Shown one piece after another: positions 27,877 through 52,428 of a stretch of DNA of 64,000 bases. How positions within the stretch are numbered: the stretch's first letter is position 1; each line of letters opens with the position of its first letter. The DNA comes from a bacterium (GTDB lineage Bacteria > Myxococcota > UBA727 > JAUIJE01). The stretch is taken from assembly GCA_030431455.1 (NCBI GenBank), contig JAUIJE010000018.1, positions 12,115 to 76,114 of the forward strand. The letters run 5' to 3'. The notes below the pieces were generated by a model, which had not been told where the DNA came from, did not search any database, and was given only the letters and a program-made list of their open reading frames with translations. The translations under genes and the position numbers were made by a program.

Positions 27877-30800
27877 CTACTTCTTGCCCTTGGCCTCTTT
27901 GGCCGCCTTGATGCGGTCCATGACCTTCTGCAGTTTTTCGCGGGTCTTTTTGTAATCGTCCTGCAGCGCGTCGTAGCGCTCCTTGAACTTCTTCTGGTCC
28001 GCGGCGCGTTTTTGCACCGCCTCCTCGTACTTCGACTTGTACTCGTCGCCCGCGCCTTGCTGGGCCTGTGCCTTTTGCAGCAGCTCCTGGCCTTTTTGTT
28101 TGAGCGCTTTGTTTTTTTCGCGGAGGTCCATGACGTCCTGCGAGAGCTTGGCCACGCGCTCCTCTTTTTCCTGCACCGCGGCCTTGAGCTGGATGAGCTC
28201 CTCGTCGTTGGCCGCCTTGGCCTGGTCTTTGGCCGCCCGCAACGCGGCCTTGAGCTTGTCGACTTCGGCCTTGGCCTTGGCCCGCTCCCGTGCGCGTTGC
28301 TCCTTCTCCTCGCCGAGCTCCCCGGCGACCTTTTTGACCCGCTCCTCGAGCTTGCCCTTGAGATCCTTGGCCTGGCCCACGAGGTCGTTGTACTTGCGCT
28401 TGACCATGACGAGGTTCTTCTTTTGCTCGTCAGCGGATTTCTGCGCTTCGTCCCGGGCCCGCTTCAGCGTCGACAACTCGTCGCCAAGCCGTGACTTGTC
28501 GTCCTCGGCGACCTTCTTGATCTGCTCGAGGTCGCGCACCAACGTGCTCTCGCGTTGGCTGCCCTGGTCCTCGAGCTGCGCGGCCTTGCGCCGGAACAGG
28601 TCGCGCTCTTTTTGCGCCTTTTCCGCCAGCCCTTTGACCCGCACGTTCTCGTCTTGGAGCTCCTCGGACCGGGTCTTGGCCGAATCGAGCTCGGTGTCGA
28701 GCACCGCGACCTTGTCCTCGAGCGCGGCCGCGCGGCGTTGCTCGGCGTCGAGATTGGCCCGGGTCTCGCCGAGGTCGTGCTCGGTGCGGGACAGCCGCTC
28801 CTCGGCCGCGGCCAGGCTGCCCTCGGTGGCGGACAGCTTTTTGGCCACCTCCTCGAGCCGGCTCTGGAGCGAGTCGACCTGGGCGGACGCCTTTTGGCTG
28901 GTCTGGGCCAACGCGCTGTCGCGGTTGAGCACGTCGCGCTGGTGTTCTTCGCGTTCGTGGTTCAGCTCGGCGGACAGACGCGCCACCTGGTCCTGTTCGC
29001 GTCCCAGGGCGTCTTCGAGATCGCCGATGCGCGCTTTTGTCTCGGCCAGCTCCGCCCGCAGGGTCTCGCCCTCGGCTTCTTTGCGGCGCAGGCGGCCGGT
29101 GAGGTCCGCGATCTTCTCGCGGCTCTCGGTGACCTGCGATTCGGACTCGGCGAGTTTGGCCCGGGTCCGGGCGAGGGCACCGTCGAGCTCTTGGCCTTCT
29201 GCAGTGGCATTGTCAAGCGCCTGTTGGAGGCGGGCCTGCTCCTGGTGGGCGGCCCGCTCCAGTTCGTGCATGCGCGCCTTCTGGGCCTCGAAGCTCTGTT
29301 CCCACTCGCCGATGCGCCCGTCGCGGTCGGCGACCTCGCGTTGGCGGGCATCGATCTCGGCTTCGAGGCGCGCGGTCAGCTCGGTGAGCTCGAGCCCCCG
29401 GGCTTCGAGCTCCTGGGTGCGGCGGTTGGCCCGTTCGCGTTCGGACTCGAGCGACGCGTGGGTCTCGGCGAGGCTGGCCTCGAGCTGCGCGACCTTCTCT
29501 TGAAACGCGGCGGTGGTCTGGGCGAGGTGATCGCGGGTCTTTTGCAGCTCGCCTTCGAGGGAGCGAATGCGGTTTTCGGCTTTCTCGAGCGTCGCCCGGG
29601 TGCCGGTGAGCTGGGAGTCGAGGCGGGTGCGTTCCTCGCGCACCTCCGCGAGCATTTGCTGCGACTCGTCGAGCTCGAGGGTGAGGTTCGCGCCCCGGGC
29701 TTCGGATTGGTCAAGGCGCATCGAGAGGTCGGTGCTGTGGCTTTGGGCCTCGGCGAGCTCGGACGAGAGATCCGTGACCTGCAACCGCGCGTCGGCGAGT
29801 TGTTTGGACCTCTCCTCGAGGGCGGTGCGGGTGGAGCCGAGTTGGTCCTCGAGCAGCGAACGCTCCGACGCGAGTTCCTTGAGCTGCCCGTGCAACTCCT
29901 CGAGCTGGGTGGCGGATTTCTGCTCGCCCAGCGCCTTTTCTTCGCGGAGTTTTTGCAGCGAGGCCGCGATCCGGTCGGCGTGGGCGGTGGTCTCGTTGAG
30001 GCTGGCGACGGTGTTCTCGAGCTGGACGTCGAGCTCGGCGATCTTGGCCTTGAGCCCGGCCGAGATCTCGGCGGCGAGGGCCTTGTCCGCCTCCGCTTGT
30101 TGCATGCGGTTGGCGAGGTCGTCGCGGGTGGAGCGGAGCTCGACCTGGAGGTCTTCGACCTCGGCGTTTTTGGTGGATAGCGTCGACGCGTGCGCGGTCT
30201 GCTCGGCTTCGAGCGCGGCCTGGACCTCGGCCCGGCGCTGCTCGAGAGCGGACAGTTGGTGCTCGTGATGGTCCTGGGCGTCCTCGAGCTCCTGGGCCAG
30301 CGCGCCCTTTTCGCGCTCCAGCCGTTCGGCCCGTTCGCGGCCGATCTCGACGTCGGCCTTGAGGCTGCCGATGTTGTCCTCGGCGGTGGTCAGTTGGGCG
30401 ACGAGGTCCTCGCGCGCCTTCTTGGCCCGGTCGAGTTCGCGCCCCTGGAGCTCGGCTTGGTTTTGCAGCTGGGCAAACTCACGCTCGCGCTCGGTCCACA
30501 GCTCCTTGGCGTGCTTGAGGTCGGTCTCTTTGATCGTGAGGTTGTGGCGGAGCGATTCGAGCCGCCCCTCGAGGCCCTTGGCTTTGGGCGGCGGCGGGAG
30601 GTTGGCCCCCGCGCGCGCTTTCGCCAAAAGCTCGTCGAGGGATGCGCCACCGCGGGGGGTGGAGGGCATCTTGGGGGGGCCGCCACGTTTTTTGAGCGCG
30701 GGCGGTTTGCCCGGTGCGCCTTCCCCGCTTTTGAGAGGAGGCGGTCCGCCGTCAGCGGGGGGCGCGTCGGCCACGGCGGCGGCGGCGCCGGGGACGAGGG

Positions 30801-31179
30801 CGCCGTTGAGAAGTTTTTCGATGGTGCCGGCCAGCACCTCCATGCCGAACGGCTTCGAGAGGTAGGCGTCGGCCGGGGTCTTGGACGCGCCGTGCCGCGA
30901 GAGGGCCTCGGGGGCGGCCGCGCCGCTGGTGAGGATGATCGGGATGTCTTTGAGCTCGGCGTGCTTTTTGAGTTTGTTGCACTCGGAAAAGCCACTCGAT
31001 GGTCCGCGCGGCAGCTCGAGGTTCAGCACCACCAGCTGGGCGGACACACCGCGCACAAAGTCGACCACGCTTTTGCTGCCGTCGTCGATCTGGGCGGTGA
31101 GGCCGAGGGAGCTGATCGCCTGCTCGACGTTGCTGGCGAAGTTGGCGTCGGGATCGATGATCGCCACGACATGAGACAC
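27877..31179 (-). CDS. FrzS/AglZ-type protein: N-terminal pseudo-receiver plus about 900-aa coiled coil
   Basis: The receiver fold retains T (PIILTSG) and K (YLSKPF), but the phospho-acceptor position reads LVVLNLELP (Asn instead of Asp). A Pro/Gly linker follows, then continuous E/L/A/Q/R heptad sequence to the C-terminus. Confidence 0.8.
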   Translation of the reverse strand: MSHVVAIIDPDANFASNVEQAISSLGLTAQIDDGSKSVVDFVRGVSAQLVVLNLELPRGPSSGFSECNKLKKHAELKDIPIILTSGAAAPEALSRHGASKTPADAYLSKPFGMEVLAGTIEKLLNGALVPGAAAAVADAPPADGGPPPLKSGEGAPGKPPALKKRGGPPKMPSTPRGGASLDELLAKARAGANLPPPPKAKGLEGRLESLRHNLTIKETDLKHAKELWTEREREFAQLQNQAELQGRELDRAKKAREDLVAQLTTAEDNIGSLKADVEIGRERAERLEREKGALAQELEDAQDHHEHQLSALEQRRAEVQAALEAEQTAHASTLSTKNAEVEDLQVELRSTRDDLANRMQQAEADKALAAEISAGLKAKIAELDVQLENTVASLNETTAHADRIAASLQKLREEKALGEQKSATQLEELHGQLKELASERSLLEDQLGSTRTALEERSKQLADARLQVTDLSSELAEAQSHSTDLSMRLDQSEARGANLTLELDESQQMLAEVREERTRLDSQLTGTRATLEKAENRIRSLEGELQKTRDHLAQTTAAFQEKVAQLEASLAETHASLESERERANRRTQELEARGLELTELTARLEAEIDARQREVADRDGRIGEWEQSFEAQKARMHELERAAHQEQARLQQALDNATAEGQELDGALARTRAKLAESESQVTESREKIADLTGRLRRKEAEGETLRAELAETKARIGDLEDALGREQDQVARLSAELNHEREEHQRDVLNRDSALAQTSQKASAQVDSLQSRLEEVAKKLSATEGSLAAAEERLSRTEHDLGETRANLDAEQRRAAALEDKVAVLDTELDSAKTRSEELQDENVRVKGLAEKAQKERDLFRRKAAQLEDQGSQRESTLVRDLEQIKKVAEDDKSRLGDELSTLKRARDEAQKSADEQKKNLVMVKRKYNDLVGQAKDLKGKLEERVKKVAGELGEEKEQRARERAKAKAEVDKLKAALRAAKDQAKAANDEELIQLKAAVQEKEERVAKLSQDVMDLREKNKALKQKGQELLQKAQAQQGAGDEYKSKYEEAVQKRAADQKKFKERYDALQDDYKKTREKLQKVMDRIKAAKEAKGKK

Positions 31180-31369
31180 GCGCTCCTCCTTGGCGCCGGC
31201 TGCCGCCGCCGCCTGGACCCTCTTTGCGGAGAGATCACCCCGGGATTTAAGCAGCTTTTGGGGGCCGAAACGAGTTCTCAGCGGACTGCCCCGTCCCGGT
31301 TATGTGCCCGGTTGTCCGACATGTTTTCGTATGGCAAGTCGGTAACAGCACCCACGCCCCCTGGAGGCA

Positions 31370-33154
31370 ATGATGCGATCTGCTGCGCGCCTGTTGACCA
31401 CTTTTATCCCCGTTGTGCCCTTGGCCCTGAGCCTTGGTTGCCCGGACGGCGACGTGACATCCATCGCCCCGACCATCAACGTGGACGTGTGTGCAACGCC
31501 AGCAGACGTCCGCAACTCCGCCGGCGACATCATCGGCGGCACCGACGACTGCGTGTTGGACTTCGGGGTGCAAGACATCTCGGTGCGGGTGCAACGAGAA
31601 ATCACGGTGTCGAACATCTCGACCATCGACCTGCGCGGCGCCGGCACCACCGCGTCCTCGTTCGAAGACCTCGACATCCAGCTCACCACCGACAGCGACC
31701 CGGCGTTCCAGATTGAGCTGAAGCCAGTGGTCGTCGAGTCCGGCCTGTCCAAAAAGATTTTGATCTCGTTCCGGCCCACGCTGGAGTCGGAGGTCACCGG
31801 GCGCTTGATCATCAGCTCCGATGCGGAGAACGTGCCCGCGGGCCAAGACGTGGTCATCGAGCTGACCGGCACCGGCGTCGACAACGGCGTGCCCGACATC
31901 CTGGTCTCTCCGCTCGAGTGCGACTTCGGCCGGGTGGCCGAAGGCAACGTCAAAGAGTGCAAGGTCGACATCACCAACAACGGGGGCCGCGACCTCGTGT
32001 TTGACGACGTGTTCTTGAAGACCTCGCGCCCCGACCCCAACGACCCCACCGAGACCGAGATCCTGCCCAAGGTGCCCCAGGGCTCCACCGGCGAGATCTT
32101 TGGCTTTTTCGGTCGGCCGCCGGCCCGCGACGACGTCGTGCCCGCGCCCCCCGAGGACAACACGGTGACGTTGACGTTGCGCTTTTCGCCCGACGCCCTG
32201 GGCAACTACTACAGCGAGGTGTCGATCCTCTCCAACGACCCCGACACCCCCGAGATCACCGTGCCGCTCATCGGCATCGGCGTCGACCCGCCGAGCTGCG
32301 CGGTCCGGATCAAATCCATCAACGGCATCGAAGGGGCGGGCACCATCGAGCCCCTCGACGACGTGATCCTCACCGCCGAAGACTCCGCGGCCCCGACCGC
32401 GTCCGGCACCATCGAGGAGTACCGCTGGGAGATCCTCGAAAAGCCGCCCTCCTCGACGGTGGTGCTCAGCGATCCCGCCGGCACCACGACCGGGTTTACG
32501 TTCGACAACGGCGACGACCTCGGGGTCGATTTCTCCGGCACCTACAAAGTGCGGCTGACCGTGGTCGATGACCTGGGCACCGAGAGCATCAACGAGTGTG
32601 AAGTGGAGTTCGAAGCGATTCCCAAGGACTCGTTCCTGATCGAACTCTCCTGGGACACCTCCGTCAACGACATGGACCTCCACCTCACCAAGCGCGACAG
32701 CGGTGGCCAGTACTGCCCGTCGAGCGTGGACCCCGGCCCCTTGGCCGACTCGTGCAGCTCGGAATACGAGGACTGCTACTTCGGGTCGTGCAAGGCGACC
32801 AAGTTCGACGGCACCCCCAACGAAGACCGCCCGGACTGGGATGGCATCGGCGGCGGGTCCTCCGAAGGCGACCCCAGCCTCGACATCGATGACCTCTCCG
32901 GCTACGGCCCGGAGAACATCAACATCGACCAAGCGGTCGAGGGCGAGTACCTCGTCGGGGTCGACTACTGGGGGGGCAGCGGCACCGTCGGGGCCACCAT
33001 CCGCATCTACATCTACGGCCAGCTCGCGGCGGAGTTCTACAAAGAACTCCAGCCCTCCGACTGGTGGGAAGTCGGCGTGCTTCACTGGCCGGCTCCCGGC
33101 AACGGTGCGCCCTGCCTGCAAGACCTGAGCAATCCCGCTTCGCAGTGCAACTGA
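31370..33154 (+). CDS. lipoprotein with ASH/PapD-like and PKD-like Ig domains and a C-terminal jelly-roll domain (594 aa)
   Basis: Lipobox LSLGC. Repeated ...CDFGRVAEGNVKECKVDITNNG... style domains. C-terminal ELSWDTSVNDMDLHL...GEYLVGVDYWGG. Confidence 0.7.
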   Translation: MMRSAARLLTTFIPVVPLALSLGCPDGDVTSIAPTINVDVCATPADVRNSAGDIIGGTDDCVLDFGVQDISVRVQREITVSNISTIDLRGAGTTASSFEDLDIQLTTDSDPAFQIELKPVVVESGLSKKILISFRPTLESEVTGRLIISSDAENVPAGQDVVIELTGTGVDNGVPDILVSPLECDFGRVAEGNVKECKVDITNNGGRDLVFDDVFLKTSRPDPNDPTETEILPKVPQGSTGEIFGFFGRPPARDDVVPAPPEDNTVTLTLRFSPDALGNYYSEVSILSNDPDTPEITVPLIGIGVDPPSCAVRIKSINGIEGAGTIEPLDDVILTAEDSAAPTASGTIEEYRWEILEKPPSSTVVLSDPAGTTTGFTFDNGDDLGVDFSGTYKVRLTVVDDLGTESINECEVEFEAIPKDSFLIELSWDTSVNDMDLHLTKRDSGGQYCPSSVDPGPLADSCSSEYEDCYFGSCKATKFDGTPNEDRPDWDGIGGGSSEGDPSLDIDDLSGYGPENINIDQAVEGEYLVGVDYWGGSGTVGATIRIYIYGQLAAEFYKELQPSDWWEVGVLHWPAPGNGAPCLQDLSNPASQCN

Positions 33155-33223
33155 TCTCCTGATCGTTTGTGGCGCCGCCCCCGCGCGGCGCGTGCGCGAC
33201 CGCGCCATGAAAGGCACTTCATC

Positions 33224-36217
33224 ATGACCGTGCGACTTCCTCTCCTCGTGGCCATCCTGGGCCTCACCGCCGCTGCCTGCGACGGCAGCGATGGCGTTCG
33301 CATCCCCCCCGACCCCACGCCCGGGTGCGAGACGCAAGAGGAGTGCGGCGACGGCTATGTCTGCGACGCGACCCAATGCGAAATCGGCGAGTGCGTGGCC
33401 GCGACCTATGTCGTGTGTGGGATGCCCATTCTCGACGAGAACAACGAGCCCATGGTCGACGAAGACGGCAACCCCCTGACCGTGACCACCAACTGCTGCC
33501 GCGAGTGGGAGTTCTGCAACTTCGACCGCACCTGCCAGCCCGACCCCAACAGCCCCATCGGCATCGACTGTGAAGTGAATGAGGACTGCACCGGCATCGG
33601 CGAGTTCTGTTCGGGCGGGACCTGCTACGACAGCAACGAGCAGACGCCGTGCACCGCGACCTACCAATGCCCCACCGGGGAGCGCTGTGACCAGACCGCG
33701 TCGTTGTGTGTGCCCGACGTCGGCGGCTGCAGCTTCTGCGGCTCGGCCTTCCCCGAGCTGTGCTGCGAAGAGGACTTCTACTGCGACGAAGAAGTCGATC
33801 GCTGCATCGAGATCGACGCGGAGCTTGAGTGCACCCCCGCCACCGTGCAGGAGGATTGCCTCCCGCTCGAGCTGTGCAACGAAGCCGGCCAATGCGTTCA
33901 GTGCATCACCACCGCCGACTGTGGGCCGGGTCTGACCTGCCGCGAGGACGACGGGGTGTGCATCTCGGAGGCCAACCAATGCCAAAGCGACGCGGACTGC
34001 ACCGGGGACAAGCGCTGCGCCCCGGTGAGCGGCGAGTGTGTGATCCCCCTGTGCGAGACCGACAGCGACTGCGCGGTGGATTTTGACCCGCGTTGGCAGT
34101 GCAACCTCGGCAGCTTCGCCTGCTTCTTGCCCCCGCCCAACTGCGGCGCGCTCGACATGCCCGAGCCCAACAACTCGCTCAACGAGGCCATCGACCTCGG
34201 CGGCCTGACCGGCGACGGGGTGTTGTGCCGCCAAGACAGCGACTACCTGAAGTTCCCCATTCTCGCCGACAAGCGGTACGCGGTGCAGATCATGTTCGCG
34301 GACTACAACGTCAAGGACAACAAGGTCTCCCTCCTGCGCCAAGACGGCATGCTCATCGACGAGATCACGCTGCCCAACACCGCCAACTCCGCCACCCTCG
34401 TGGGCATCACCGCCGAGGACGAGGCGGACACCGAATGGTACGTGCGCATCACCGGCTCGGGCGTCGACGCTGACATCTGGCCGTACACGGTGTTGATCGA
34501 AGAAGACGACGCGCCCGACATCACCACCTGTGAGGACGAGATGGCGATGGGCATCGAGCCCAACAACACCATCGCCACCGCCACCGAGACCATGCCGGGG
34601 ACCCACGTGTTCGCCCGCTGCGACAGCTCCGACGTCGACTACTACCGGGTCGAGGTCCCGGTGCAGCACGGCATCGACGTCACCCTCACCCACTTTGTGG
34701 CCGACGGCGACCTCACCTTGAGTCTGTACGACAGCAACGGCGACCTCATCGACGACAACGACACCCTCAACTCCACCAAGTCGGTGGACGCGCCTGAGGG
34801 CGAGACCGTGTTCTACGTCGGGGTCGAGCTCTACTCGCAGAACGTGCCCAACATCGATGGCCAACAGTACACCCTCGACATCGACGCCACCCCCCGGCCC
34901 GCGGTGTGCGACGACGACCCCGGCGAGCCGGCCAATGACCTGTTCGCCACCGCGATGGTGTTCCCGGTCAACACCCCCACCGACGCCCTGCGCTGCGTGA
35001 ACGAAGACGTCGACTACAACCAGTTCACCGTGCCGGCCGACGAGGGGGCCAAGCTGGACGTGACCTTCACCCACAGCCAAGGCAACATCCGCGTCGACCT
35101 GTACGACGACAACGAGACATTGGTGGGTTCGTCTGACTCCTCGACCGGGGCCAACGGGGTCGAGAGCATCGAGATCCCGTTCAGCGGCCAAGACGAGACC
35201 TACGTCGCCAAAGTGAGCCTCTCGACCACCTCTGGCCAGGTCGGCCAAGCGTACTCCATGGTGGTCAACACCTACGACGCGTCGACCTGCGTGGCCTCCG
35301 AGCCGGTGCCCAACAACACCTTCGTGACCGGCCGGTGCATCGGCACCCCGATCACCGACCTGACCTGCGAGGGGGCGCCTTTGCCCAACCCCGTGATCGC
35401 CCCCGCGTTGGCCACCTGCAGCACCACCCCCGACACCGTCGGCTGTGGCTCGACCTGCGGCGCCCTCGACGAGGACTGGTACCGGGTGGGCAAGCTCAAC
35501 GACGGCCAGCTTTTGGCCGCGACCTTGACCTACGATCACGCGGCGATGAACGGCCGCCTCGGCCTCGCCTTGGTCCGTGCGTCCGGCGACTACGAGACCA
35601 TCAACTTCATCAACTACGACCCCAACACCGAGGGCAACAACACCATCACGTTGGCGCTCAACGCCTCCACCGTGAACCCCGCGTTCGCGCGGGAGTACGG
35701 CGTGGTCGTCATGCCCGAAGGGAGCGAAGGCTTCGCCGCGCTGCCCTACACCCTCGACGTCGAGGTCGGTCCGCCCTGCCAGCCCGACGCCTGGGAGCCC
35801 AACAGCAACCCGTCGCAGTCGCACCTCATCCGCACCACGGGCATGCCCGGGGTCGCGTACAACCAGACCTTCGACCAGACCCTGTGCGGCTTCGACACCG
35901 ACGTGTACGAGCTCATCCTCTTCGTGGGCGAGACCCTGACCGTCCGCTACGCGGGGCCGGAGACGACCACGGTCAACATCGGGGAGCGGCCGGACGACAT
36001 CGAGGACGAAGCCGTCACCTTGCTGCCCAGCGGCGAGGGCATGGACCTTTCGCCTTGCACCATCACCCCGCCGGGGGCGTCCCCCAACGAAGTGTGCGTG
36101 CAAGCGACCTGGACCACGGCCGAGATCAAACAGACCTACCTCACCATCAAACGTGAGTCCGGCACGTCGGGGGCGACGATCGGTCCCTACCGCCTGGTGG
36201 TGGACGTCACCCCGTGA
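33224..36217 (+). CDS. large lipoprotein: Cys-knot repeats followed by about five PPC (pre-peptidase C-terminal)-like domains
   Basis: Start chosen at MTVRLPLLVAILGLTAAAC (lipobox). About six Cx3(D/E)Cx2Gx2C... repeats. PPC openers EPNNSLNEAIDLG, EPNNTIATATE, EPANDLFATAM, EPVPNNTF, WEPNSNPSQS. Confidence 0.7.
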   Translation: MTVRLPLLVAILGLTAAACDGSDGVRIPPDPTPGCETQEECGDGYVCDATQCEIGECVAATYVVCGMPILDENNEPMVDEDGNPLTVTTNCCREWEFCNFDRTCQPDPNSPIGIDCEVNEDCTGIGEFCSGGTCYDSNEQTPCTATYQCPTGERCDQTASLCVPDVGGCSFCGSAFPELCCEEDFYCDEEVDRCIEIDAELECTPATVQEDCLPLELCNEAGQCVQCITTADCGPGLTCREDDGVCISEANQCQSDADCTGDKRCAPVSGECVIPLCETDSDCAVDFDPRWQCNLGSFACFLPPPNCGALDMPEPNNSLNEAIDLGGLTGDGVLCRQDSDYLKFPILADKRYAVQIMFADYNVKDNKVSLLRQDGMLIDEITLPNTANSATLVGITAEDEADTEWYVRITGSGVDADIWPYTVLIEEDDAPDITTCEDEMAMGIEPNNTIATATETMPGTHVFARCDSSDVDYYRVEVPVQHGIDVTLTHFVADGDLTLSLYDSNGDLIDDNDTLNSTKSVDAPEGETVFYVGVELYSQNVPNIDGQQYTLDIDATPRPAVCDDDPGEPANDLFATAMVFPVNTPTDALRCVNEDVDYNQFTVPADEGAKLDVTFTHSQGNIRVDLYDDNETLVGSSDSSTGANGVESIEIPFSGQDETYVAKVSLSTTSGQVGQAYSMVVNTYDASTCVASEPVPNNTFVTGRCIGTPITDLTCEGAPLPNPVIAPALATCSTTPDTVGCGSTCGALDEDWYRVGKLNDGQLLAATLTYDHAAMNGRLGLALVRASGDYETINFINYDPNTEGNNTITLALNASTVNPAFAREYGVVVMPEGSEGFAALPYTLDVEVGPPCQPDAWEPNSNPSQSHLIRTTGMPGVAYNQTFDQTLCGFDTDVYELILFVGETLTVRYAGPETTTVNIGERPDDIEDEAVTLLPSGEGMDLSPCTITPPGASPNEVCVQATWTTAEIKQTYLTIKRESGTSGATIGPYRLVVDVTP

Positions 36218-37035
36218 TCGGCGGGGTCCGCACCCTCCCGGCGGCGCTGGTTGTCGCCGGGATGTGCCTGTCCGTCGGGTGTGTCCACAACACGCTGGGG
36301 CAGCCGCCGACGCAGTTTGAGCTGCGCAACGACGGCACCCCTGAATCCAAAAACCACCTCTACAACCGCTACAAGGTCACCTACGCCGACGGCTACTTCA
36401 GCCGGCCATACTCATTGGAGTACTCGTCGGAGGCCACCTCCGACGCGGCGCTCAACTACCTCACCGACTCGGCGGAGGCCGAAGAAGAGCTCGCCACCTT
36501 GCCGGTGGCGCTCGACCGTTTCCACCAGTCGGCGTCGTTTTACGCCTCCATCGTGGGGGTGTTCATGGCCATGGGCACGGCGGTGGGCATGTACTCAAGC
36601 CTGTCCCAGGGGGCGTTCGCGGACATCATCGCCGGGGGCAACCAGAGCGTTCAGGGTGCACAATCATTGGCGCTGTTTATGGTGTCGGGGATGGCCGCGG
36701 GGTTGATCGCGTCGCTCCCCATCCTGCTCATCGCCGAAATCACGATCAAACCCATCGTGCGGTCGGTCGCGGGACCGAGCTACCGGGCCAGCGCCCGGGC
36801 CTACAACGAGGACCTGTCGCGGCGCATCGACGCCGCCGTCGACGACACCCTGCGGCGCCAGCGCGCCCATCCCCCGGTGTCCGCGCCCGCGGCGCCAGGG
36901 GGAAAAGTGCCTCTCGACCCCGCGCCCCCCGACCCCGCGCCCCCCGACCCCCCGCCGGGGCCCAGCAGCCAGCCCACCCCCGACGCCGAGGGCCCACCGG
37001 AACTGCCCCCCGCGGCGGGCGGCGATCCTGTTTGA
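36214..37035 (+). CDS. lipoprotein/membrane protein with Pro-rich C-terminus (273 aa)
   Basis: GTGA-coupled. Lipobox LSVGC. Two later hydrophobic helices. The tail is APPDPAPPDPPPGPSSQP. Confidence 0.6.
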   Translation: MIGGVRTLPAALVVAGMCLSVGCVHNTLGQPPTQFELRNDGTPESKNHLYNRYKVTYADGYFSRPYSLEYSSEATSDAALNYLTDSAEAEEELATLPVALDRFHQSASFYASIVGVFMAMGTAVGMYSSLSQGAFADIIAGGNQSVQGAQSLALFMVSGMAAGLIASLPILLIAEITIKPIVRSVAGPSYRASARAYNEDLSRRIDAAVDDTLRRQRAHPPVSAPAAPGGKVPLDPAPPDPAPPDPPPGPSSQPTPDAEGPPELPPAAGGDPV

Positions 37036-39277: not shown

Positions 39278-39348
39278 CGGCCCCCACCATAGCCAAACCG
39301 GCGGCCCAGCGGTTGCACAACCTCCGGTGGCTGGTTCAGACTGAGGGC

Positions 39349-41962: not shown

Positions 41963-41990
41963 AAAAACCCCGCTTCGGCGGGGTTTTATT
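41963..41990. terminator. bidirectional intrinsic terminator
   Basis: AAAAA-CCCCGC-TTCG-GCGGGG-TTTT, between convergent genes. Confidence 0.65.
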
Positions 41991-45446: not shown

Positions 45447-48400
45447 ATGGCGGTGCGCTTCGGCGACTTCATGCTCCAGCAAGAGCTCGGCACGTCCGAC
45501 GTGGCGGAGCGTTTTCGGGCCATGCACGACAAGCTTGGCGGTCCATATTTCGTCAAGCGGTACCACGGTCTCGACGGCGCGTTCCTGCACGACCTCGCGT
45601 TTCGGTGTGAACGCTTGATGTCGGTCAAGCACCACGCGCTCGCGCCCCACCTCGGCCACGGCGAGGTGGACGGCGTCGTGTTCGTCGTGTCCCCGATGCT
45701 CGACGGCATCGACCTCGCAAGCTTCGTCGACAGCCTGCGCGAACGGCGCGTGATTCTGCCCGTCACCGCGATCTTGTACATCCTGCGCGAGGTCGCGCTC
45801 GCGGTCGACGCGCTCCACCGCGCCGACCGCGCGCTCGCCCACGGCGACGTCACCGCCCGTCACATCCGGCTCGGCCCCGCGGGCGAGGTCTGGCTCACCG
45901 GGCTGACCACCCCCCGCGGCGACGGTCCCGGCGTCGCGTGCGACCCCGTGTGGGACGGGGCCGGCATCGGCGCCACCGTCTACGACCTGATCGGCCTGAC
46001 CCGGCCCCAACGCGAGCGCCCTCCGCTGCCGCACGCCCTCGACCGGCTGGTCCGGCGCGCGCTCGGCATCGGCGCCCCCTCCGACCGCGTCTCCGCCCGG
46101 GAGCTGGCGGAGGGCCTGGAGGAGGTCGCCGCGGGCATGAACGCGAAGCTGCACCCGGGCATCCTCGCAGAGGTCGCGCACCGCACCATCGAGGCCGTGC
46201 GCCGGGCCCGCGCGCACACCGCCGCGGACCAACTGCCCACCCTGGAGCCGATCCCCGCCGCCGCCGATGCCCCGGCCGCGCCGCCCCCCGACGAGGCCCC
46301 GGCGGCCCCGCCCGCGCCCCCCGCCCCGGCCGAGGTGGCGCCCCCGCCGGCCGCGGCCGCGCCCCCGCCCGCGCCCCCCGTCGACGAGGCCCCGCCGTCG
46401 GCGGACGCGCCGGTGACGTCCCCGGCCTTCCCGGTGCCCGGCCTGCGGGCGAAGGGCTCGCCCCCGCTGCCCAAAAAGCGGCGCAAGCCAGACCCCGCCC
46501 CCGAGGCGCCGCCGCCCGCCCCCGCCGCCTCCGTCGAGGGCCCGGCCGAAGACCTCGTGCCCCCGCCCACGCCGGACTTCGCCGACGCGGCCGACTTTTT
46601 CGAGAGCAACGCGACCTCGCAGACCTCGCCCGAGCTGTTGGCGCTCGTCGAGGACAAGACCCTCCCGCTGGGCATGCCCGACGCGACGAGCAAAGGGTCG
46701 GGGGACAACACCGTCGAGGTGCCGCTGCCACCCAAGATTCCGTCGGAGTCTCCCCCCCCGCGGCGCCGGCCGAAAAAGACCCCTTCGCTGGCCGACCTGC
46801 CGCCCGACATCGATCCCATCTTCCGGCCCCAGCCGCTCGCGGATGTGTCCGACGAAGCCGACCACGGGTTCGACGCGATGTTCGGCGGGTTGTCGGAGGT
46901 CGCGGCCGAGCGTCCCAAACGCCGCGGCGGCGGCCTGCTCGTCGACCCCCTGACCACCGATGGCGCCGCGCTCCTCGACGGTGGACCGCCCACCGTGCCG
47001 GTCAAGCCCCTCGGCGCCGCCGACAAGACCGACGAGGTCGGCGCCGAGCCCGACGCCTCCCCCGTCGAGGCCCGCACCGCGTTGGCCGACGGCGCGGGCT
47101 CCACCGACGAGACCTCGTCACCCTCCCAGGCCGAGCCCGACGTCGACCCGTCGTCCAGCGACGAGCCGCCCCCCGCCCCCGCCGACGCGCTCCCCCCGCC
47201 GCCGGTGGGCGGGCTTGTCGATCCCCCCGGCCCCGCCGACAACGACCTCGGCGCAGGGCCCAAAACCGGCACCTACGATCTCAACCCCACCGACGACCGA
47301 GCGGTGGCCGCCCTGCTGCGGCGGGGGCGCATCACCCACGCCCAGCTGGAGTCGGCCAAAGGGTCCCAGTCCCAGCGGGGGGGGCGCCTGGTCGACGTGC
47401 TCGTGTCCGAGGGGGTGGTGACCGAGACCGCGATCGCGGACATCCTCGCCGACGAAGCGGTCAAGCAGCGCATCTCTGCAGAAGCATTGGACAAGCGGGT
47501 GCCGTCGCCGGACATGACCCGCCGGCTCCCCGAGACCTTCGCGTCCTCCCGTCGCATTTTGCCCCTGACCGCGCCCGCAGATGGGCCGCTGGTGGTCGCG
47601 GTGGCGGACCCGTTCGACGACGCGTCCATCGACGAGGTCCGCCGCATTTACAAAAAGAAGCTGGTGCAGGTGCACGTGGCCGAGCGCAGCGCCCTCAGCC
47701 GCGCCATCGCCCGGGCGTACGGAGCGTCGGCGAGCGGGCCGCTTCCCGGGGTGTCCCAGGGCCAGCAGGTGGTGCTCCTGTGTCTCGACGACGACGCGCT
47801 GCTGCGGCGGGTGGGGGCCCGGTTCGTCGACGAGGGCTTCGCGGTCGAACACGCCGCCAGCGGTCACCTCGCCCAACGCATCCTCGAGAAGGGCTCGCCC
47901 GACGCCGTGCTCTGTGCCTACACATTGCCGGGCGAAGTCGGCGGCGAGGACGTGTTGCTGACCACCCGGCAAAGCCCCCAGCACGACGACACCCCGTTCT
48001 TCATGTTCGGTGAGGACGCGGAGGGCGAACTCGAAGCCAAGGTCCTCGACCTCGGCGCGGACGATTTTTTCACCGCCCCCTACAACCTCGACGTGATGGT
48101 GCGGAAGCTCCGCCGGGCCATGGGCAAACACTCGCGCAAGATGCGGCCCGCGCCGGGGCCGGGGGCCGAGGTGCCGTACCCCGAGCTGTCCGTCGATGAG
48201 ATGGCCGGGCTCGCGAGCGCGCCGGTGGGCAATCCCCTCGACGACCCGTTCGGGGCGGTGGTCACCGATGTCCCCGCCGAGCCCACCGGGGTGATGGGCA
48301 CCCTGCGCCAGATGGCGGTGTCCGAGATCGTGCAGTCCCTCGAGCTGGGGCGGAAGACGGCGCGGGTCGAGCTGGTGCCCAACAACGGCGACGGGGGACG

Positions 48401-48611
48401 GTTTTGGTTTCGGCTCGGGCAGATCGTGTACGCGGAGTGCGGCGACCTGCTCGGCGAGGAAGCGTTCTTCGCCCTCGCGCGCAACACCCAAGGGTTCTTC
48501 CGCATCTCGTACGGTGACGACGCGGAGGAGACCAACATCGAAAAACCCACCACGTTCTTGTTGCTCGAGGCCATGCGCCGCATCGACGAGGACATCGCGC
48601 CGGACGCGTAG
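45447..48611 (+). CDS. multidomain scaffold: pseudokinase (STK-like) - Pro-rich linker - T2SSE_N/MshEN - pseudo-receiver - DUF4388 (PATAN)
   Basis: The ATG at 45447 is preceded by GGGAGGAGG. The kinase-like fold reads AHGDVTARH for HRDxKxxN and LTGL for DFG. The MshEN-like stretch is RLVDVLVSEGVVTETAIADILADE. The REC-like region has LDDD but AVLCAYTLPG (no Asp) and FFTAPY (no Lys). DUF4388-like: GTLRQMAVSEIVQSLELGRKTARVEL. Confidence 0.8.
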   Translation: MAVRFGDFMLQQELGTSDVAERFRAMHDKLGGPYFVKRYHGLDGAFLHDLAFRCERLMSVKHHALAPHLGHGEVDGVVFVVSPMLDGIDLASFVDSLRERRVILPVTAILYILREVALAVDALHRADRALAHGDVTARHIRLGPAGEVWLTGLTTPRGDGPGVACDPVWDGAGIGATVYDLIGLTRPQRERPPLPHALDRLVRRALGIGAPSDRVSARELAEGLEEVAAGMNAKLHPGILAEVAHRTIEAVRRARAHTAADQLPTLEPIPAAADAPAAPPPDEAPAAPPAPPAPAEVAPPPAAAAPPPAPPVDEAPPSADAPVTSPAFPVPGLRAKGSPPLPKKRRKPDPAPEAPPPAPAASVEGPAEDLVPPPTPDFADAADFFESNATSQTSPELLALVEDKTLPLGMPDATSKGSGDNTVEVPLPPKIPSESPPPRRRPKKTPSLADLPPDIDPIFRPQPLADVSDEADHGFDAMFGGLSEVAAERPKRRGGGLLVDPLTTDGAALLDGGPPTVPVKPLGAADKTDEVGAEPDASPVEARTALADGAGSTDETSSPSQAEPDVDPSSSDEPPPAPADALPPPPVGGLVDPPGPADNDLGAGPKTGTYDLNPTDDRAVAALLRRGRITHAQLESAKGSQSQRGGRLVDVLVSEGVVTETAIADILADEAVKQRISAEALDKRVPSPDMTRRLPETFASSRRILPLTAPADGPLVVAVADPFDDASIDEVRRIYKKKLVQVHVAERSALSRAIARAYGASASGPLPGVSQGQQVVLLCLDDDALLRRVGARFVDEGFAVEHAASGHLAQRILEKGSPDAVLCAYTLPGEVGGEDVLLTTRQSPQHDDTPFFMFGEDAEGELEAKVLDLGADDFFTAPYNLDVMVRKLRRAMGKHSRKMRPAPGPGAEVPYPELSVDEMAGLASAPVGNPLDDPFGAVVTDVPAEPTGVMGTLRQMAVSEIVQSLELGRKTARVELVPNNGDGGRFWFRLGQIVYAECGDLLGEEAFFALARNTQGFFRISYGDDAEETNIEKPTTFLLLEAMRRIDEDIAPDA

Positions 48612-48631: not shown

Positions 48632-48662
48632 AAAAAAGCGCGGGACCGGCCCGCGCGTTTTT
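48632..48662. terminator. bidirectional intrinsic terminator
   Basis: AAAAAA-GCGCGGG-ACCGG-CCCGCGC-GTTTTT, between convergent genes. Confidence 0.6.
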
Positions 48663-48679
48663 GTGTTTGTCGTCGTCGA

Positions 48680-50326
48680 TCAGCGGATGGAGCGGATCGA
48701 GTTCATCGCGTTTTGGTGCAGCATGTTCATGATGTTGGACAGCGCTTGGAGCACCTGTTGGATGTCCTGGGTCATGGACTTGATCTCTTCGGCGATCAAC
48801 GTGCGGCTGCGGTGCACCTGGTTGGTCGACTGGTCGCCGTAGTCGGCGTTGGGCGCGTCCGGGGTCGGGGCGGCGTCGGTGGCGGCGGCGGCGTCGGTCT
48901 TGGGGCCCGCCGACCGCGCGGCTTTGTCGCCCTCGGCGTGCTGCATCACGATGTCGGAGGCGGTCTTGAGCCCCTTCATCTTGGTGCCCAGGTCTTCGTC
49001 CTTGTTGGTGAACACATCCACAATGTAACTGGCCAACTTGCCGGGGATGCCCTCCGCCCCGCGCAGGGCGCCGGCCAAGGGGCTGTTGGCGGACTGGGCC
49101 TCGCCCGGATCGATCTTCTTCTCGATGTCGACCTCGACGTCGTACTGCTTGAGCACTTTTTGGCCCCACTCGAGGATGGGCCCGAGGTCGCTGTTTTTGC
49201 CCGCGGGCAGGTCGGGGGACGACAGCAGCGCGTGGGTGATCGACGCGGCCATCAAGTGGTCGGCGGGGGGCCCCACCACGGTGAGCTCTTCGAGCTTGCT
49301 CGCGATGCGCATCGCTTCGTTGCGGTTGATGATGCCCTCGCCGTGTTTGCCGATGTACTCCATCTGCGGCCGGCCGTCGGGGCCGCGCAGCACGTTGCCC
49401 TGGTCGTCCTTTTTGACCCGCGCGGTTTCGTAGTCGCGCTTGAGCGCGGTGTCGGCGGCGTTGACCACCTTCTGGACCACCTGCGCGGTCTGGCCCGCGA
49501 CGTGTTCGTCAAAGTCGGCCACCCCGAGGGTGGTGTCGAGTTGGTCTTGTTGCTCTTGTTTGACCTGGGTCTTGTTGAGTTCGCGCTTGTTGAGCTCCTC
49601 GTCGACGCGCTGGAGCTCTTTCATCTTCTCGGCCATGTCCATTTCCATGTTGGCGACCATCATCAACATGAACGCGGCGAGGATGTCCTCGAAGGTGCCG
49701 CCCTCGGCGAGCAGCTTGGACAGGCGGGCGGCGTAGGGATTCTGCGGGCGCGCGGTCTGGATTTCTTCGAACTCGCCCATGGTCTCGCGAATCTCGGGCT
49801 CGGCCATCTTTTTGCGCATCGGTGCGCGGGCGTTGGTGTCGAGCTTGATGTCGCCGTCTTTGCTCGCGCCGAACACCGCGTCGGTCAGCAGCGCCTGCAA
49901 AAACGGGGGCGCCGCGTCCATGGCGGTGAACAGCTCCTGCAGCAGCTTTTTGGTCACCCGCGGGGCCTTGGTGAGGACCTTGAGCGAGTGCTCGAATTGG
50001 GTCCGGCGTGACTCGACCCCGGCTTGGTCGAGGACCTCGCCCGGGCTGAGATCCCGGACGGGCACATTGAGCGACTCGGCGAACAGCGCGCGGGTGTCGT
50101 CGTCGACAACGAACAGGTCCTGTTGCAGCGCGAGCTTCAGCCCGTCGACGACCAACGCCTTGTCGGCCGCGGGCAGGGCGTCGAGGCCCTGGAGCATGGT
50201 CTGCGCTTCCGCCTTGGTGACCTGCTTGCCGCCGGCCGACCCCTCGTCGACCGCGATGCCCAACTTCTCCAACGTGGTGGTGAGGTTGGCCAGGTTCTTC
50301 ATCATGTTTTGTGGGGGGATGCGCAT
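48680..50326 (-). CDS. hypothetical all-alpha protein (548 aa) with Met-rich hydrophobic segment and Q/N-rich amphipathic C-terminus
   Basis: ATG at 50326 (MRIPPQNMMKNLANL...). Internal ILAAFMLMMVANMEMDMAEKM. The C-terminus is QQVLQALSNIMNMLHQNAMNSIRSIR. No family recognised. Confidence 0.6.
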   Translation of the reverse strand: MRIPPQNMMKNLANLTTTLEKLGIAVDEGSAGGKQVTKAEAQTMLQGLDALPAADKALVVDGLKLALQQDLFVVDDDTRALFAESLNVPVRDLSPGEVLDQAGVESRRTQFEHSLKVLTKAPRVTKKLLQELFTAMDAAPPFLQALLTDAVFGASKDGDIKLDTNARAPMRKKMAEPEIRETMGEFEEIQTARPQNPYAARLSKLLAEGGTFEDILAAFMLMMVANMEMDMAEKMKELQRVDEELNKRELNKTQVKQEQQDQLDTTLGVADFDEHVAGQTAQVVQKVVNAADTALKRDYETARVKKDDQGNVLRGPDGRPQMEYIGKHGEGIINRNEAMRIASKLEELTVVGPPADHLMAASITHALLSSPDLPAGKNSDLGPILEWGQKVLKQYDVEVDIEKKIDPGEAQSANSPLAGALRGAEGIPGKLASYIVDVFTNKDEDLGTKMKGLKTASDIVMQHAEGDKAARSAGPKTDAAAATDAAPTPDAPNADYGDQSTNQVHRSRTLIAEEIKSMTQDIQQVLQALSNIMNMLHQNAMNSIRSIR

Positions 50327-50490: not shown

Positions 50491-51456
50491 ATGGCCAAGC
50501 CCGACCTCTCCGAGGTGCTCGATCTCGCGTACGCCGCCCTGGCCCACGGGGAGGTCAAAGAGGCGCGCCGCCAGCACGCCGAGGCCTGCCGGCTGGGGGC
50601 CGGGGATCGCGACGTCGCCATCCTCGAGGTGGATCTGCTCGAGGCGGAGGGCGCGCTCGAGGAGGCGGTGGCGGCCTGCGAGGACCTCCATGAGCGGCTC
50701 GTCGACGACCCCACGGTGGCGTTTCGGTTGGCCACCCTGCTGCTGGACGCGTTTGATGACGTCGAGGCCAGCGAGGACCTGTTGCGCAGCGCCGACGACC
50801 TGCTCGCCGACGAGGACGAAGAGGACGCCCAGAGCTTGCGCGTCGAGGTGTTGGTGACCCTGGCCGACTGTTGCGCCGCCGCGGGGAAGGTCAAAGCCGC
50901 CCAAGACGCGGCCGCCCGGGCCCGGGAGATCGCGCCCGAGGACCCGTCGGTGCGCTTGTGTTGGGCATCGACCCTGCTCGACAGCGGCTCGCTCGACGCG
51001 GCCCTGACCGAGGTCGAGGCCTTGCTCGCCGGCGCCCCCCCGTCGCCGGACGCGCTGTGGCTCAAGGGCCGGGTGTTGACCGCGCAAGGCGACGACGCCG
51101 CCGCCGACGTCGCGTTCGAGCGCGCGGTGGAGCTCGACCCCGAGCGCTTCGCGGCGCCGTTGGTCCTGTCCGACGACGACTGGGACCAGGTGCTCGAGGA
51201 GGTGCAGGACGCGGCCGAGGGCTCGTTGTCCGGCCTGCTCGACAGCGCGCGGTGGGAGATCTTGCCCGCGCCCCGGCCCGAACACCTGGGCAAAGGCCGC
51301 TCCCCCTCGATCCTGTGCCTGGTCAGCGGCCCCGCCGAGGACCCCACGGTCACGATCTTTGCCCGCAACCTCGCCATCGCCGCCCAGGACGAGGACGACC
51401 TCCGCGCCCTGCTCCTCGACGCCCTCGCCGACGAAGCGGCCGCCTTCAGGGACTGA
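50491..51456 (+). CDS. TPR-like repeat protein (321 aa)
   Basis: ATG at 50491. Ala/Leu/Asp/Glu-rich helical repeats (ALAHGEVKEARRQHAEACRLG...). Confidence 0.55.
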   Translation: MAKPDLSEVLDLAYAALAHGEVKEARRQHAEACRLGAGDRDVAILEVDLLEAEGALEEAVAACEDLHERLVDDPTVAFRLATLLLDAFDDVEASEDLLRSADDLLADEDEEDAQSLRVEVLVTLADCCAAAGKVKAAQDAAARAREIAPEDPSVRLCWASTLLDSGSLDAALTEVEALLAGAPPSPDALWLKGRVLTAQGDDAAADVAFERAVELDPERFAAPLVLSDDDWDQVLEEVQDAAEGSLSGLLDSARWEILPAPRPEHLGKGRSPSILCLVSGPAEDPTVTIFARNLAIAAQDEDDLRALLLDALADEAAAFRD

Positions 51457-51457
51457 C

Positions 51458-51880
51458 TCAGTTGCTTTCGATGTCGGGGATCGGGAGCTTGGCGAAGGGC
51501 ACGCCCTCGTCGGCCAAGGCCTGCTCGTCGTCGGCGGTGGTCGAGCCGTAGATCGCCCGCAGCGGGGCTTGGCCGCGGTGCATGGCCCGGGCGGCGTCGG
51601 CGAAGCCATCGCCGACGTCCTCGTGGGTCGCGCGCACGTGCTGCACCACCTTGGCCAACGCCTTTTGCACCTCGAGGGGCATGGCCGCGGGGGCGCTCTG
51701 GCGGGCCGCGGTCTTCGCGGTCTTGATCGTGCCCGTCGACAGATGCTGGATGACGTGGACCGACTCACACAGCGGACAGGTCAACTCGCCCTTGTTGCGA
51801 ATCGACGTGTACTCGGCGTGGCTGTCGTACCACCCCTCGAAGCGGTGTTGGTTGTCGCATTCCAGGTCGACGATGAACAT
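51458..51880 (-). CDS. DUF1178-family zinc-ribbon protein
   Basis: MFIVDLECDNQHRFEGWYDSHAEY...LTCPLCES matches the DUF1178 N-terminal pattern. Confidence 0.6.
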   Translation of the reverse strand: MFIVDLECDNQHRFEGWYDSHAEYTSIRNKGELTCPLCESVHVIQHLSTGTIKTAKTAARQSAPAAMPLEVQKALAKVVQHVRATHEDVGDGFADAARAMHRGQAPLRAIYGSTTADDEQALADEGVPFAKLPIPDIESN

Positions 51881-51993
51881 GACCCCAATGTCCCGTCGTG
51901 GATCGCGCCGCGCAAGCGGCGTGTGCGCGGGGGCGGTTTTTTTGGAGCCGGCGGGGGCCACCGGTAGCCTGGCGGGGCAGCAAGGAGGCGTCG

Positions 51994-52428
51994 ATGGTCG
52001 CTGTGCAATGCCGGGATGTGGTCGCTCAAGGGGCGAGACAAGATGCTGAAATTATTGGTTTTTTGGACCGGCTGGACGAAGGCCGGGCCGCGGTCCGGGC
52101 CGCGCTGCGGCTGCCCTGTTGGCTGATGGAGCCCGATCAGAGCCGGCGCGGCTTCGTGTCCGACCTGTCGTCCACCGGGGCCCGGGTCTCGGGCATGCGG
52201 CCGGTGGCGATCGGGACCCGCCTGCTCTGCAAGGTCGATTTTGGGCGCCACGGTGGGCCGCTGACCACCTTCGCCCAGGTCGTGCGGCACCACGGCGAGG
52301 GGCCGGGCGCGGAGGCGGGGCTTTTGTTTTTGGACCCCCCGTTTGGGTTTTGGAACCTCGTCAACCAGCTCTCGATCCGCGCCCACCAACGCCACGCGCG
52401 GCGCCGTCGCGCCACGCCCCCGCGCTGA
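51994..52428 (+). CDS. PilZ-domain c-di-GMP receptor
   Basis: RAALR (RxxxR) and DLSSTG (DxSxxG) at canonical spacing. AAGGAGG RBS upstream of the ATG at 51994. Confidence 0.75.
   Translation: MVAVQCRDVVAQGARQDAEIIGFLDRLDEGRAAVRAALRLPCWLMEPDQSRRGFVSDLSSTGARVSGMRPVAIGTRLLCKVDFGRHGGPLTTFAQVVRHHGEGPGAEAGLLFLDPPFGFWNLVNQLSIRAHQRHARRRRATPPR

Follow-up and report, generated by a model that had tools for sequence, protein, structure and literature searches.

Does a region in which catalytically degenerate signalling scaffolds, cyclic di-GMP (c-di-GMP) modules and exported proteins lie interleaved encode a single machine, or several systems that happen to be neighbours? The question is raised by positions 27877-52428 of a 64,000-nucleotide stretch of contig JAUIJE010000018.1 (assembly GCA_030431455.1), a member of the Myxococcota. 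The whole stretch is referred to here as the window, and a first-pass annotation made from the letters alone had proposed that 12-15 genes of the region form an undescribed envelope/polarity machine. The best explanation is probably a different one, namely a lineage-specific, signalling-rich neighbourhood in which about five independently conserved modules stand among genes without an evident tie to signalling. The domain content of the region, the states of its catalytic sites and the block structure of its conservation are observed directly and are described in turn below.

The genes in question number 18, 16 of them inside the region and two, for a helicase and a YaeI-like phosphoesterase, just outside it (Table 1). 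As the GC content of the window is 63-75%, genes were called by the GC of the third codon position, and the calls were cross-checked against the database gene calls of the identical contig. Five blocks can be distinguished: (i) the phosphoesterase, the IGHMBP2-family helicase and a coiled-coil protein resembling FrzS, divergent from two lipoproteins; (ii) an FHA protein and a pseudo-receiver coiled-coil protein, divergent from a MYXO-CTERM-like protein, a REC-EAL protein and DUF507; (iii) a pair of YVTN-propeller proteins, divergent from a scaffold of pseudokinase, MshEN-like, pseudo-receiver and PATAN domains; (iv) a 548-aa protein divergent from a TPR-zincin; and (v) DUF1178 divergent from a PilZ protein. 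Switches of orientation delimit about ten transcription units, and strong bidirectional terminators mark two convergent junctions, both of which are block boundaries. A promoter scan of the region returned no sigma-70-like sites, as is expected from the GC content and the phylum.

Conservation was judged from 16 loci of about 14 genomes, all of them metagenome-assembled genomes (MAGs) of uncultured Myxococcota, with 10 kb taken on each side of the anchor genes (the scaffold and the Ig-like lipoprotein) and all proteins of the window searched for. The loci recovered hold the full gene set together in none of these genomes, and the co-occurrence that the first-pass annotation had named as its check is found by blocks and never for the whole set. 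From the first gene as far as the propellers, the order is retained in just two genomes, the closest ones. One of them, represented by two loci (L086/L003), retains the order from phosphoesterase to scaffold without the FHA protein, lipoprotein 3 and the 548-aa/TPR pair, and of the two it alone shows the scaffold gene; the other (L090) keeps the order starting from the helicase, its locus ending in the first propeller gene, and is without the FHA protein, the phosphoesterase and the MYXO-CTERM-like gene. Further loci retain less. In L091 the order persists until REC-EAL and is followed by unrelated genes; L088 and L092 have the helicase and coiled-coil genes with two lipoprotein genes, beyond which come a true kinase and metabolic genes; in L087 only the two lipoproteins and DUF507 remain. 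Conversely, L005 runs from DUF507 through PilZ and on to Fe-ADH, RadA and SlyD, with no REC-EAL, FHA or lipoprotein gene in up to 5.7 kb upstream, and L008-L010 differ by a single inversion of the segment from DUF507 to the TPR gene. The scaffold gene lies amid unrelated genes, such as those for a periplasmic binding protein and glycogen phosphorylase, in L007 and L012, and in L006 unrelated genes follow it downstream, while upstream the contig breaks off. Breakpoints recur between blocks, after lipoprotein 2 (L087, L088, L092), after REC-EAL (L091, L005) and after the scaffold (L003). Since no other locus recovered unites the full set and the same breakpoints separate the blocks, a neighbourhood of modules describes the region better than one machine. 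Fe-ADH, RadA and SlyD, which form the right flank, are moreover as syntenic in L005 as the candidate genes, and conserved order here therefore mostly reflects shared descent and is weak evidence of function.

That all 12-15 genes form one envelope/polarity machine, whose degenerate scaffolds, under the control of c-di-GMP and phospho-threonine, would link coiled-coil filaments to surface proteins, is highly improbable. The dense interleaving of signalling scaffolds with exported proteins speaks for it, as do the order that the two closest genomes retain as far as the propellers (with the scaffold in one of them) and the blocks that stay adjacent in L008-L010 despite the inversion. Against these stand the subsets in unrelated context just described (L088, L092, L087, L005, L007 and L012, and likewise L006 downstream of the scaffold), the ten or so transcription units with terminators between blocks, and the housekeeping genes (DUF507, DUF1178, IGHMBP2 helicase, Fe-ADH, RadA) that are interleaved or equally syntenic. 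Pfam scans of the region further reveal neither a motor, channel or ATPase nor an active kinase or diguanylate cyclase, and no histidine kinase is encoded here, so that inputs have to originate at other places in the genome.

The first-pass annotation read the individual domains more successfully than the whole. The three receivers that it described as having substituted phospho-chemistry are all pseudo-receivers when aligned to CheY and PhoB, and because their substitutions are conserved in orthologues they are genuine, sequencing noise being excluded. Its kinase fold without the DFG Asp and the catalytic-loop Lys and Asn is a pseudokinase by both sequence and fold, its binding-only modules (FHA, PilZ, MshEN-like, DUF4388/PATAN) are all clear Pfam matches, and the enzymatic competence that it ascribed to the REC-EAL protein agrees with a complete set of catalytic residues and a canonical receiver. 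The six exported proteins also stand, with the correction that four readable lipoboxes (lipoproteins 1-3 and the shorter propeller-like protein) replace the three lipoproteins first counted. Its interpretation is supported in part: three conserved pairings of a signalling gene with exported-protein genes survive, whereas a single 25-kb machine is unsupported. The window open reading frames (ORFs) scanned with Pfam, all but a few small ones in the prophage and in the last 1.4 kb, include no MotAB/TolQR-like channel, CheA/CheW or PilB/PilT, as the annotation had also stated. In this the region differs from the Agl-Glt, type IV pilus and Frz systems of Myxococcus xanthus, to which its likeness is only general (scaffolds, lipoproteins and an FHA protein with a weak match to GltG).

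Several features weigh on the other side of the preferred reading of a neighbourhood of modules. Four receiver-containing proteins together with FHA, PilZ and EAL domains in about 18 genes look like an enrichment; three separate pairings of signalling with exported proteins form a recurring pattern that pure descent does not predict; and the blocks are still adjacent after the L008-L010 inversion. The comparison genomes also belong to one uncultured clade, and with 10 kb on each anchor side co-occurrence is judged locally. As regards density, myxobacteria typically have many MshEN and PilZ proteins, M. xanthus up to 22 MshEN genes, and MshEN-REC fusions are already known (PMC5013675), so that a dense content of c-di-GMP and receiver domains is normal for the phylum.

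Table 1. Positions in the window of the genes discussed, of elements within and between them, and of flanking features; the last rows give orthologues in other loci.
Feature	Position	Strand	Remark
YaeI-like metallophosphoesterase	24892-25914	-	block (i); outside 27877-52428
IGHMBP2-family SF1 helicase	25927-27870	-	block (i); outside 27877-52428
FrzS/AglZ-like REC-like domain + coiled coil	27877-31179	-	block (i); 1100 aa
Lipoprotein 1, Ig-like	31370-33154	+	block (i)
Lipoprotein 2, PPC repeats	33167-36217	+	block (i); likely start 33224
Lipoprotein 3, small	36214-37035	+	
FHA protein	37051-37575	-	block (ii); 174 aa
Pseudo-REC + coiled coil	37562-39277	-	block (ii); 571 aa
Exported repeat protein, MYXO-CTERM-like	39313-40005	+	block (ii); 230 aa
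DNA tandem repeats	39405-39705		in MYXO-CTERM-like gene
REC-EAL	40002-41168	+	block (ii)
DUF507	41387-41923	+	block (ii)
Terminator	41964-41987		bidirectional; after DUF507
Propeller-like exported protein	42041-44005	-	block (iii); 654 aa
Propeller-like lipoprotein	44002-45339	-	block (iii); 445 aa
Four-domain scaffold	45447-48611	+	block (iii); 1054 aa
Kinase-like domain of scaffold	45447-46226	+	
Terminator	48638-48656		bidirectional; between scaffold and 548-aa genes
548-aa protein, no family match	48680-50326	-	block (iv)
TPR protein	50491-51456	+	block (iv)
DUF1178	51458-51880	-	block (v)
PilZ	51898-52428	+	block (v); start may be 51994
Prophage	1-24.75 kb		left flank
Prophage portal	1756-3144		
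Prophage major capsid	7922-9493		
Prophage LamG-domain tail protein	16456-19221		
Prophage M15 endolysin	19200-19733		
Prophage integrase	23450-24754		
tRNA-Asp	24776-24852	-	adjoins prophage
TPR protein, retropepsin-like domain	58778-59962		
Protein with Somatomedin_B domain	60730-62637		635 aa
MYXO-CTERM-like orthologue	L086 16972-17778		same layout
MYXO-CTERM-like orthologue	L091 17473-18060		same layout
MYXO-CTERM-like orthologues	L008-L010		same layout

Block (i) is centred on a protein whose N-terminal receiver is followed by a proline-rich linker (residues 125-200) and about 900 aa of coiled coil. In its alignment with CheY and PhoB the acceptor Asp57 is replaced by Asn and the second acidic residue by Pro, with Ser and Lys retained, and the Asn is conserved in five orthologues. 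The top PDB match of this receiver is FrzS (2GKG), with E=1.2e-11 where ordinary receivers reach 1e-5. FrzS itself is documented to be without the conserved Asp phosphorylation site (PMC1974792) and acts as a polar scaffold without a phospho-acceptor (PMC1974792, PMC9811614). Like FrzS and AglZ of M. xanthus, the window protein combines a receiver fold lacking the acceptor Asp with a proline-rich linker and a long C-terminal coiled coil; unlike them, it has a length that fits neither, carries Asn where FrzS has Ala and stands in a conserved unit with a helicase. Its surroundings are free of Frz, pilus and Agl-Glt genes, and the window as a whole is free of mglA, sgmX, pil and glt genes. No NCBIfam equivalog matches it, and the likeness stops short of established orthology. 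By analogy with FrzS, it would be a phosphorylation-independent coiled-coil scaffold, acting by protein-protein contacts.

The partners of this gene on its own strand are harder to account for. The helicase, which scores 421.7 bits against a cut-off of 348.9 for TIGR00376 and carries AAA_11 and AAA_12, follows 6 bp downstream in the window, and after a further gap of 12 bp the unit ends with the phosphoesterase (Pfam Metallophos; NCBIfam YaeI at 108 bits, under its cut-off), gaps at which the three genes are probably co-transcribed. In all five orthologous loci (L086, L088, L090, L091, L092) the helicase gene shares the strand of the coiled-coil gene and is found downstream of it, directly in four of them with gaps of 9-95 bp and separated by a 110-aa ORF in L091, which makes this the most constant adjacency of the whole region; the phosphoesterase follows the helicase in L086 and L091. 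This constancy would suit a coiled-coil protein that works with the helicase and the phosphoesterase on nucleic acids or the chromosome instead of as a motility or polarity scaffold, a role that is nonetheless improbable. The receiver is specifically FrzS-like, the protein has neither an ATPase head nor a DNA-binding domain, and genes of unrelated function can also be neighbours on one strand. From about residue 200 to residue 1100 the only matches are to coiled-coil models (SMC, crescentin rod, CALCOCO1), and an SMC/Rad50 identity was rejected since such matches cover the coiled coil only and lie far under the cut-offs.

On the other side the FrzS-like gene probably shares a divergent promoter region with a lipoprotein operon of two or three genes, the arrangement towards lipoproteins 1 and 2 being found in five of seven loci (L086, L088, L090, L091, L092) and probably in a sixth. 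Lipoprotein 1 (lipobox LSLGC) contains Ig-like (choice-of-anchor D, ASH/HYDIN-type) and PKD-like domains matched in both Pfam and NCBIfam, and has about 55 full-length homologues, all MAG-derived. Lipoprotein 2 (signal LTAAAC), which follows it in all seven loci, has PPC repeats (Pfam PPC) behind a Cys-rich N-terminal part; its database call is 997 aa long, and a search of metagenome contigs with a three-sequence alignment of this lipoprotein gave a single uninformative 2-kb locus. Lipoprotein 3 (lipobox LSVGC), with internal hydrophobic segments and a proline-rich tail, matches no Pfam or NCBIfam family, and its sole orthologue was found in L090.

The one protein of the region that appears enzymatically competent in signalling belongs to block (ii). 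The REC-EAL protein (Pfam EAL 8e-45, REC 3e-16; orthologues 71-75% identical) has a canonical receiver, with DD, D, S and K at CheY positions 12, 13, 57, 87 and 109, and an EAL domain in which the catalytic and metal-binding residues are complete in comparison with active BlrP1 (ESLAR, INTQP, FELTE, DDYG, KIS, ENVE, QG). It is accordingly predicted to be an active phosphodiesterase with a phosphorylatable receiver, which would hydrolyse c-di-GMP and lower its level once the receiver is phosphorylated. It resembles the REC-EAL phosphodiesterases of the PvrR/RocR type, aligning end to end (residues 2-372) with the PvrR model, although its score of 69 bits falls far from the equivalog cut-off of 580. 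It differs from PvrR, too, in that it is probably co-transcribed with an exported protein, the MYXO-CTERM-like gene lying directly upstream on the same strand in five of six loci (L086, L091, L008-L010). In the latter protein a signal peptide precedes the acidic tandem repeats, which are followed by a small Cys-rich domain and a tail that, read by eye in the window and in five orthologues, comprises a Cys-containing motif, a hydrophobic helix and an Arg-rich end (GGCLCAG and RRRRRGRRRG in the window); an NCBIfam scan of it returned no MYXO-CTERM match. Its acidic repeats evolve fast (LDAG and LPDAAxD in the window, GEGE or DAGEPPV in relatives) and the Cys-rich domain after them is conserved; a near-identical strain from biofloc differs by 12 bp of repeat length at 39442.

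The remaining members of block (ii) are less constant, the FHA and second pseudo-receiver genes being variably present on the other side of the MYXO-CTERM/REC-EAL pair and DUF507 sometimes downstream of it. The FHA protein (Pfam FHA E=4e-15), in which the conserved Arg, Ser, His and Asn are readable in GRASS, SKLH and RNGT (motifs GR, SxxH, NG), is a predicted phospho-threonine reader with orthologues in L091 and L008-L010; an identity with GltG was rejected at 31 bits against a cut-off of 650. Its gene overlaps by 14 nt the stop of the upstream pseudo-receiver gene, whose product has a receiver, matched by Pfam Response_reg at only 19.6 bits, followed by a coiled coil. Asp57 is retained there, with Gly-Gly in place of the acidic pair, Val in place of Thr and Leu in place of Lys (GG, D, V, L), substitutions that are conserved in L086, L090 and L091 and that set it, like the receiver of the scaffold (DD, A, G, A), apart from phosphorylatable receivers. 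The REC-EAL module would thereby adjoin both a phospho-threonine reader and a second pseudo-receiver coiled-coil protein. DUF507 (Pfam 3.5e-28; orthologues 75-88% identical), with which the block ends at a terminator, is a widely conserved family of unknown function.

Block (iii) contains the most novel single item of the region, the scaffold, in which a pseudokinase domain (residues 1-260), a proline-rich linker of about 350 aa, an MshEN-like domain (at about residues 620-770), a pseudo-receiver and a C-terminal PATAN/DUF4388 domain (E=1e-20) follow one another. Its first 260 residues match PknE at 1e-5 (phmmer), and an AlphaFold model of the kinase-like domain, with a predicted local distance difference test score (pLDDT) of 86, is matched by Foldseek to PknI, PknA, GAK and STRAD at a TM of about 0.6. 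As in PknI, PknA and STRAD, the fold is bilobal, with beta3 Lys and HxD histidine still in place. Unlike active Hanks-type kinases, whose residue pattern it does not show despite the kinase fold, the domain has a degenerate Gly-rich loop (GTSDVA) and reads HGDVTARH for HRDLKxxN, without the catalytic-loop Lys and Asn, and LTG for DFG; in the family alignment LTG is invariant and the catalytic Asp of HGD varies. In the receiver Asp57, Thr and Lys are replaced by Ala, Gly and Ala, the acidic pair DD is retained, and this pattern is conserved in the family.

The MshEN-like domain (Pfam E=1e-16) is the part of the scaffold through which c-di-GMP might be read. The MshEN motif comprises two copies of RLGxx(L/V/I)(L/V/I)xxG(L/V/I)(L/V/I)xxxxLxxxLxxQ with a 5-residue spacer (PMC5013675, Wang et al.), and by this description the scaffold has both 24-residue motifs at the exact spacing; among the matches of its family profile are PilF (2e-25), PilB and MshE. 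The conserved Gly3 is replaced by Val in both motifs (Leu or Val across the family), the second motif, RLVDVLVSEGVVTETAIADILADE, also has Glu for Gln24, the first is more degenerate, and the NCBIfam model of the c-di-GMP motif, NF053729, scores 34.8 against a cut-off of 38. Because of the Gly-to-Val replacement in both motifs and the score below the cut-off, binding of c-di-GMP by this domain is plausible but not assured. The scaffold thus shares the two-motif layout and exact spacer with the MshEN (GSPII) domains of MshE, PilB and Thermus PilF, from which it differs in lacking an attached ATPase as well as in the replaced Gly3.

A possible direction for the output of the scaffold comes from its C-terminal domain. 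PATAN domains of cyanobacterial regulators act on the pilus apparatus, and PATAN proteins of M. xanthus, among them the uncharacterised MXAN_3211 and MXAN_4965, co-occur with the pilus activator SgmX (PMC11580455). As in PatA-type PATAN-REC regulators (PixG) and in these two M. xanthus proteins, PATAN/DUF4388 adjoins a receiver in the scaffold; unlike in PatA-type regulators, PATAN stands after the receiver, which is inactive, the scaffold has a pseudokinase and an MshEN domain in addition, and the window has no pilus genes. By this analogy the pilus connection is a lead, no more. Full-length homologues of the scaffold form 23 clusters, with nine GTDB species loci, and all come from MAGs of uncultured Myxococcota or "Deltaproteobacteria". 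The architecture of pseudokinase, MshEN, pseudo-receiver and PATAN hence appears, as judged from sequence, to be new, limited to a small uncultured clade and inactivated in all its enzymatic domains, and the scaffold may bind c-di-GMP via its MshEN-like domain and relay this through contacts of its PATAN and pseudokinase domains.

Opposite the scaffold, and transcribed divergently from it, stand the two exported propeller-like proteins, whose genes overlap by 4 nt. The family profile of the longer one matches the YVTN propeller 1L0Q at E=3.6e-11 in three stretches, without a Pfam or NCBIfam family being found for it; the shorter one (lipobox LVGC) matches 1L0Q at E=2.2e-7 by its family profile and reaches 27.5 bits for TIGR02276 against a cut-off of 27.85, and its single-sequence AlphaFold model is unusable (pLDDT 35). 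Both are consistent with repeated YVTN blades. The pair is divergent from the scaffold gene in five of seven informative loci (L003, L005, L009, L010, L011), which were obtained by a rescan with the scaffold family alignment, a search of genome contigs with the single 654-aa propeller protein having given no match.

Three conserved pairings of signalling with exported proteins, that is the FrzS-like protein with the lipoproteins, the scaffold with the propellers and REC-EAL with the MYXO-CTERM-like protein, therefore recur across the blocks. It is possible, if on the unlikely side, that two or three of them are small cytoplasm-envelope modules in which a dead scaffold or REC-EAL is co-regulated with, and functionally tied to, the adjacent exported proteins. 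The frequencies of the three arrangements given above favour such ties, as do the short intergenic gaps of 35-190 bp. Divergent neighbours can, however, be non-interacting, and the partners lie in different compartments, with lipoprotein 3 and its hydrophobic segments as perhaps the only membrane-spanning link encoded. In L087, moreover, the lipoproteins occur without the FrzS-like gene, and in L007 and L012 the scaffold occurs without the propellers.

Block (iv) follows across a terminator on which the scaffold gene and that of the 548-aa protein converge. The 548-aa protein has no match in Pfam, NCBIfam or PDB and ends in a conserved extreme C-terminal helix (...MHQNAMNSIRSIR). An exhaustive HMMER search recovered about 25 full-length, unannotated representatives of its family; a word-indexed search returned only the query, the relatives being too divergent for a word index. 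Some 40 further proteins of 85-670 aa share only the C-terminal 45 residues or so (SRxxMFEExK...LQQxxQALSNxLNxMHQxAMNxIRxIR), some of them with a FEDLVAAFM helix and some with Gly-rich spacers; this C-terminus may be an assembly or sorting module. A link to type III secretion was rejected, the C-terminal helix being only loosely like needle proteins and without Pfam or PDB support. The gene is divergent from that of the TPR protein in four loci (L005, L008-L010). Orthologues of the latter have a C-terminal Zincin_1 metallopeptidase domain (2e-22 to 2e-25) ending HEVGHYLGL / HEVGHYLGLDEEDL, whereas the window copy gives TPR matches only and reads DEAAAFRD at the HExxH site, both His ligands being lost. 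This lost zincin site is a further inactivated domain, absent from the list of the first-pass annotation. The module would accordingly pair the 548-aa protein with a TPR-zincin whose metal site has been lost in the window strain.

Whether blocks (iii) and (iv) hold something more specific can also be asked. It is doubtful that the scaffold and its divergent propeller pair, perhaps with the 548-aa/TPR-zincin pair, are an undescribed module of one clade in which a non-catalytic scaffold couples c-di-GMP to envelope structure, in a lineage that repeatedly pairs dead scaffolds with exported proteins.

Block (v) adds another potential reader of c-di-GMP. The PilZ protein is a single domain (Pfam 3e-10) in which RxxxR (RAAVR) and DxSxxG (DLSSTG) are intact, as expected of a c-di-GMP receptor. 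It adjoins DUF1178, a zinc ribbon (Pfam 3e-38) that is widely conserved and of unknown function; both have orthologues in L003 and L005, the two loci in which the genes are divergent. PilZ, and possibly the MshEN-like domain, would thus read c-di-GMP. On the preferred reading the modules are most likely separate and lineage-specific, some of them reading or degrading c-di-GMP; they may share a c-di-GMP pool, and their physical linkage would mostly be descent, decaying block by block. These workings are inferred from the domain states, and joint action of the blocks is no part of that inference.

The surroundings of the region are of other kinds. The left flank is a prophage adjoining tRNA-Asp; as the equivalent site of L086 is occupied by a LysM protein, the insertion is strain-specific. 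On the right, beyond block (v), lie a TPR protein with a C-terminal retropepsin-like aspartyl protease domain and a protein with a Somatomedin_B domain, an unusual domain for a bacterium. Over 24801-48700, a strain with about 99% identity occurs in 2025 biofloc/aquaculture metatranscriptome libraries and in 2021 metagenomes. The biofloc RNA contigs have a flat depth of about 4-18 and span divergent promoters, and may be DNA carry-over; coverage this flat and low is uninformative on expression and operons.

Every domain type in the region is already known, and it is the pairings of signalling with exported proteins that are specific to the lineage. Gene order among moderately related MAGs that reaches as far as RadA and SlyD is, on its own, weak evidence for common function, which is a caution. 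The most interesting item is a scaffold of purely inactivated or binding domains. If the view of separate blocks is right, the region is a useful catalogue, not a discovery. An uncultured lineage of Myxococcota would then have kept the FrzS-like, REC-EAL, PilZ and PATAN parts of the model myxobacteria and recombined them in its own way.

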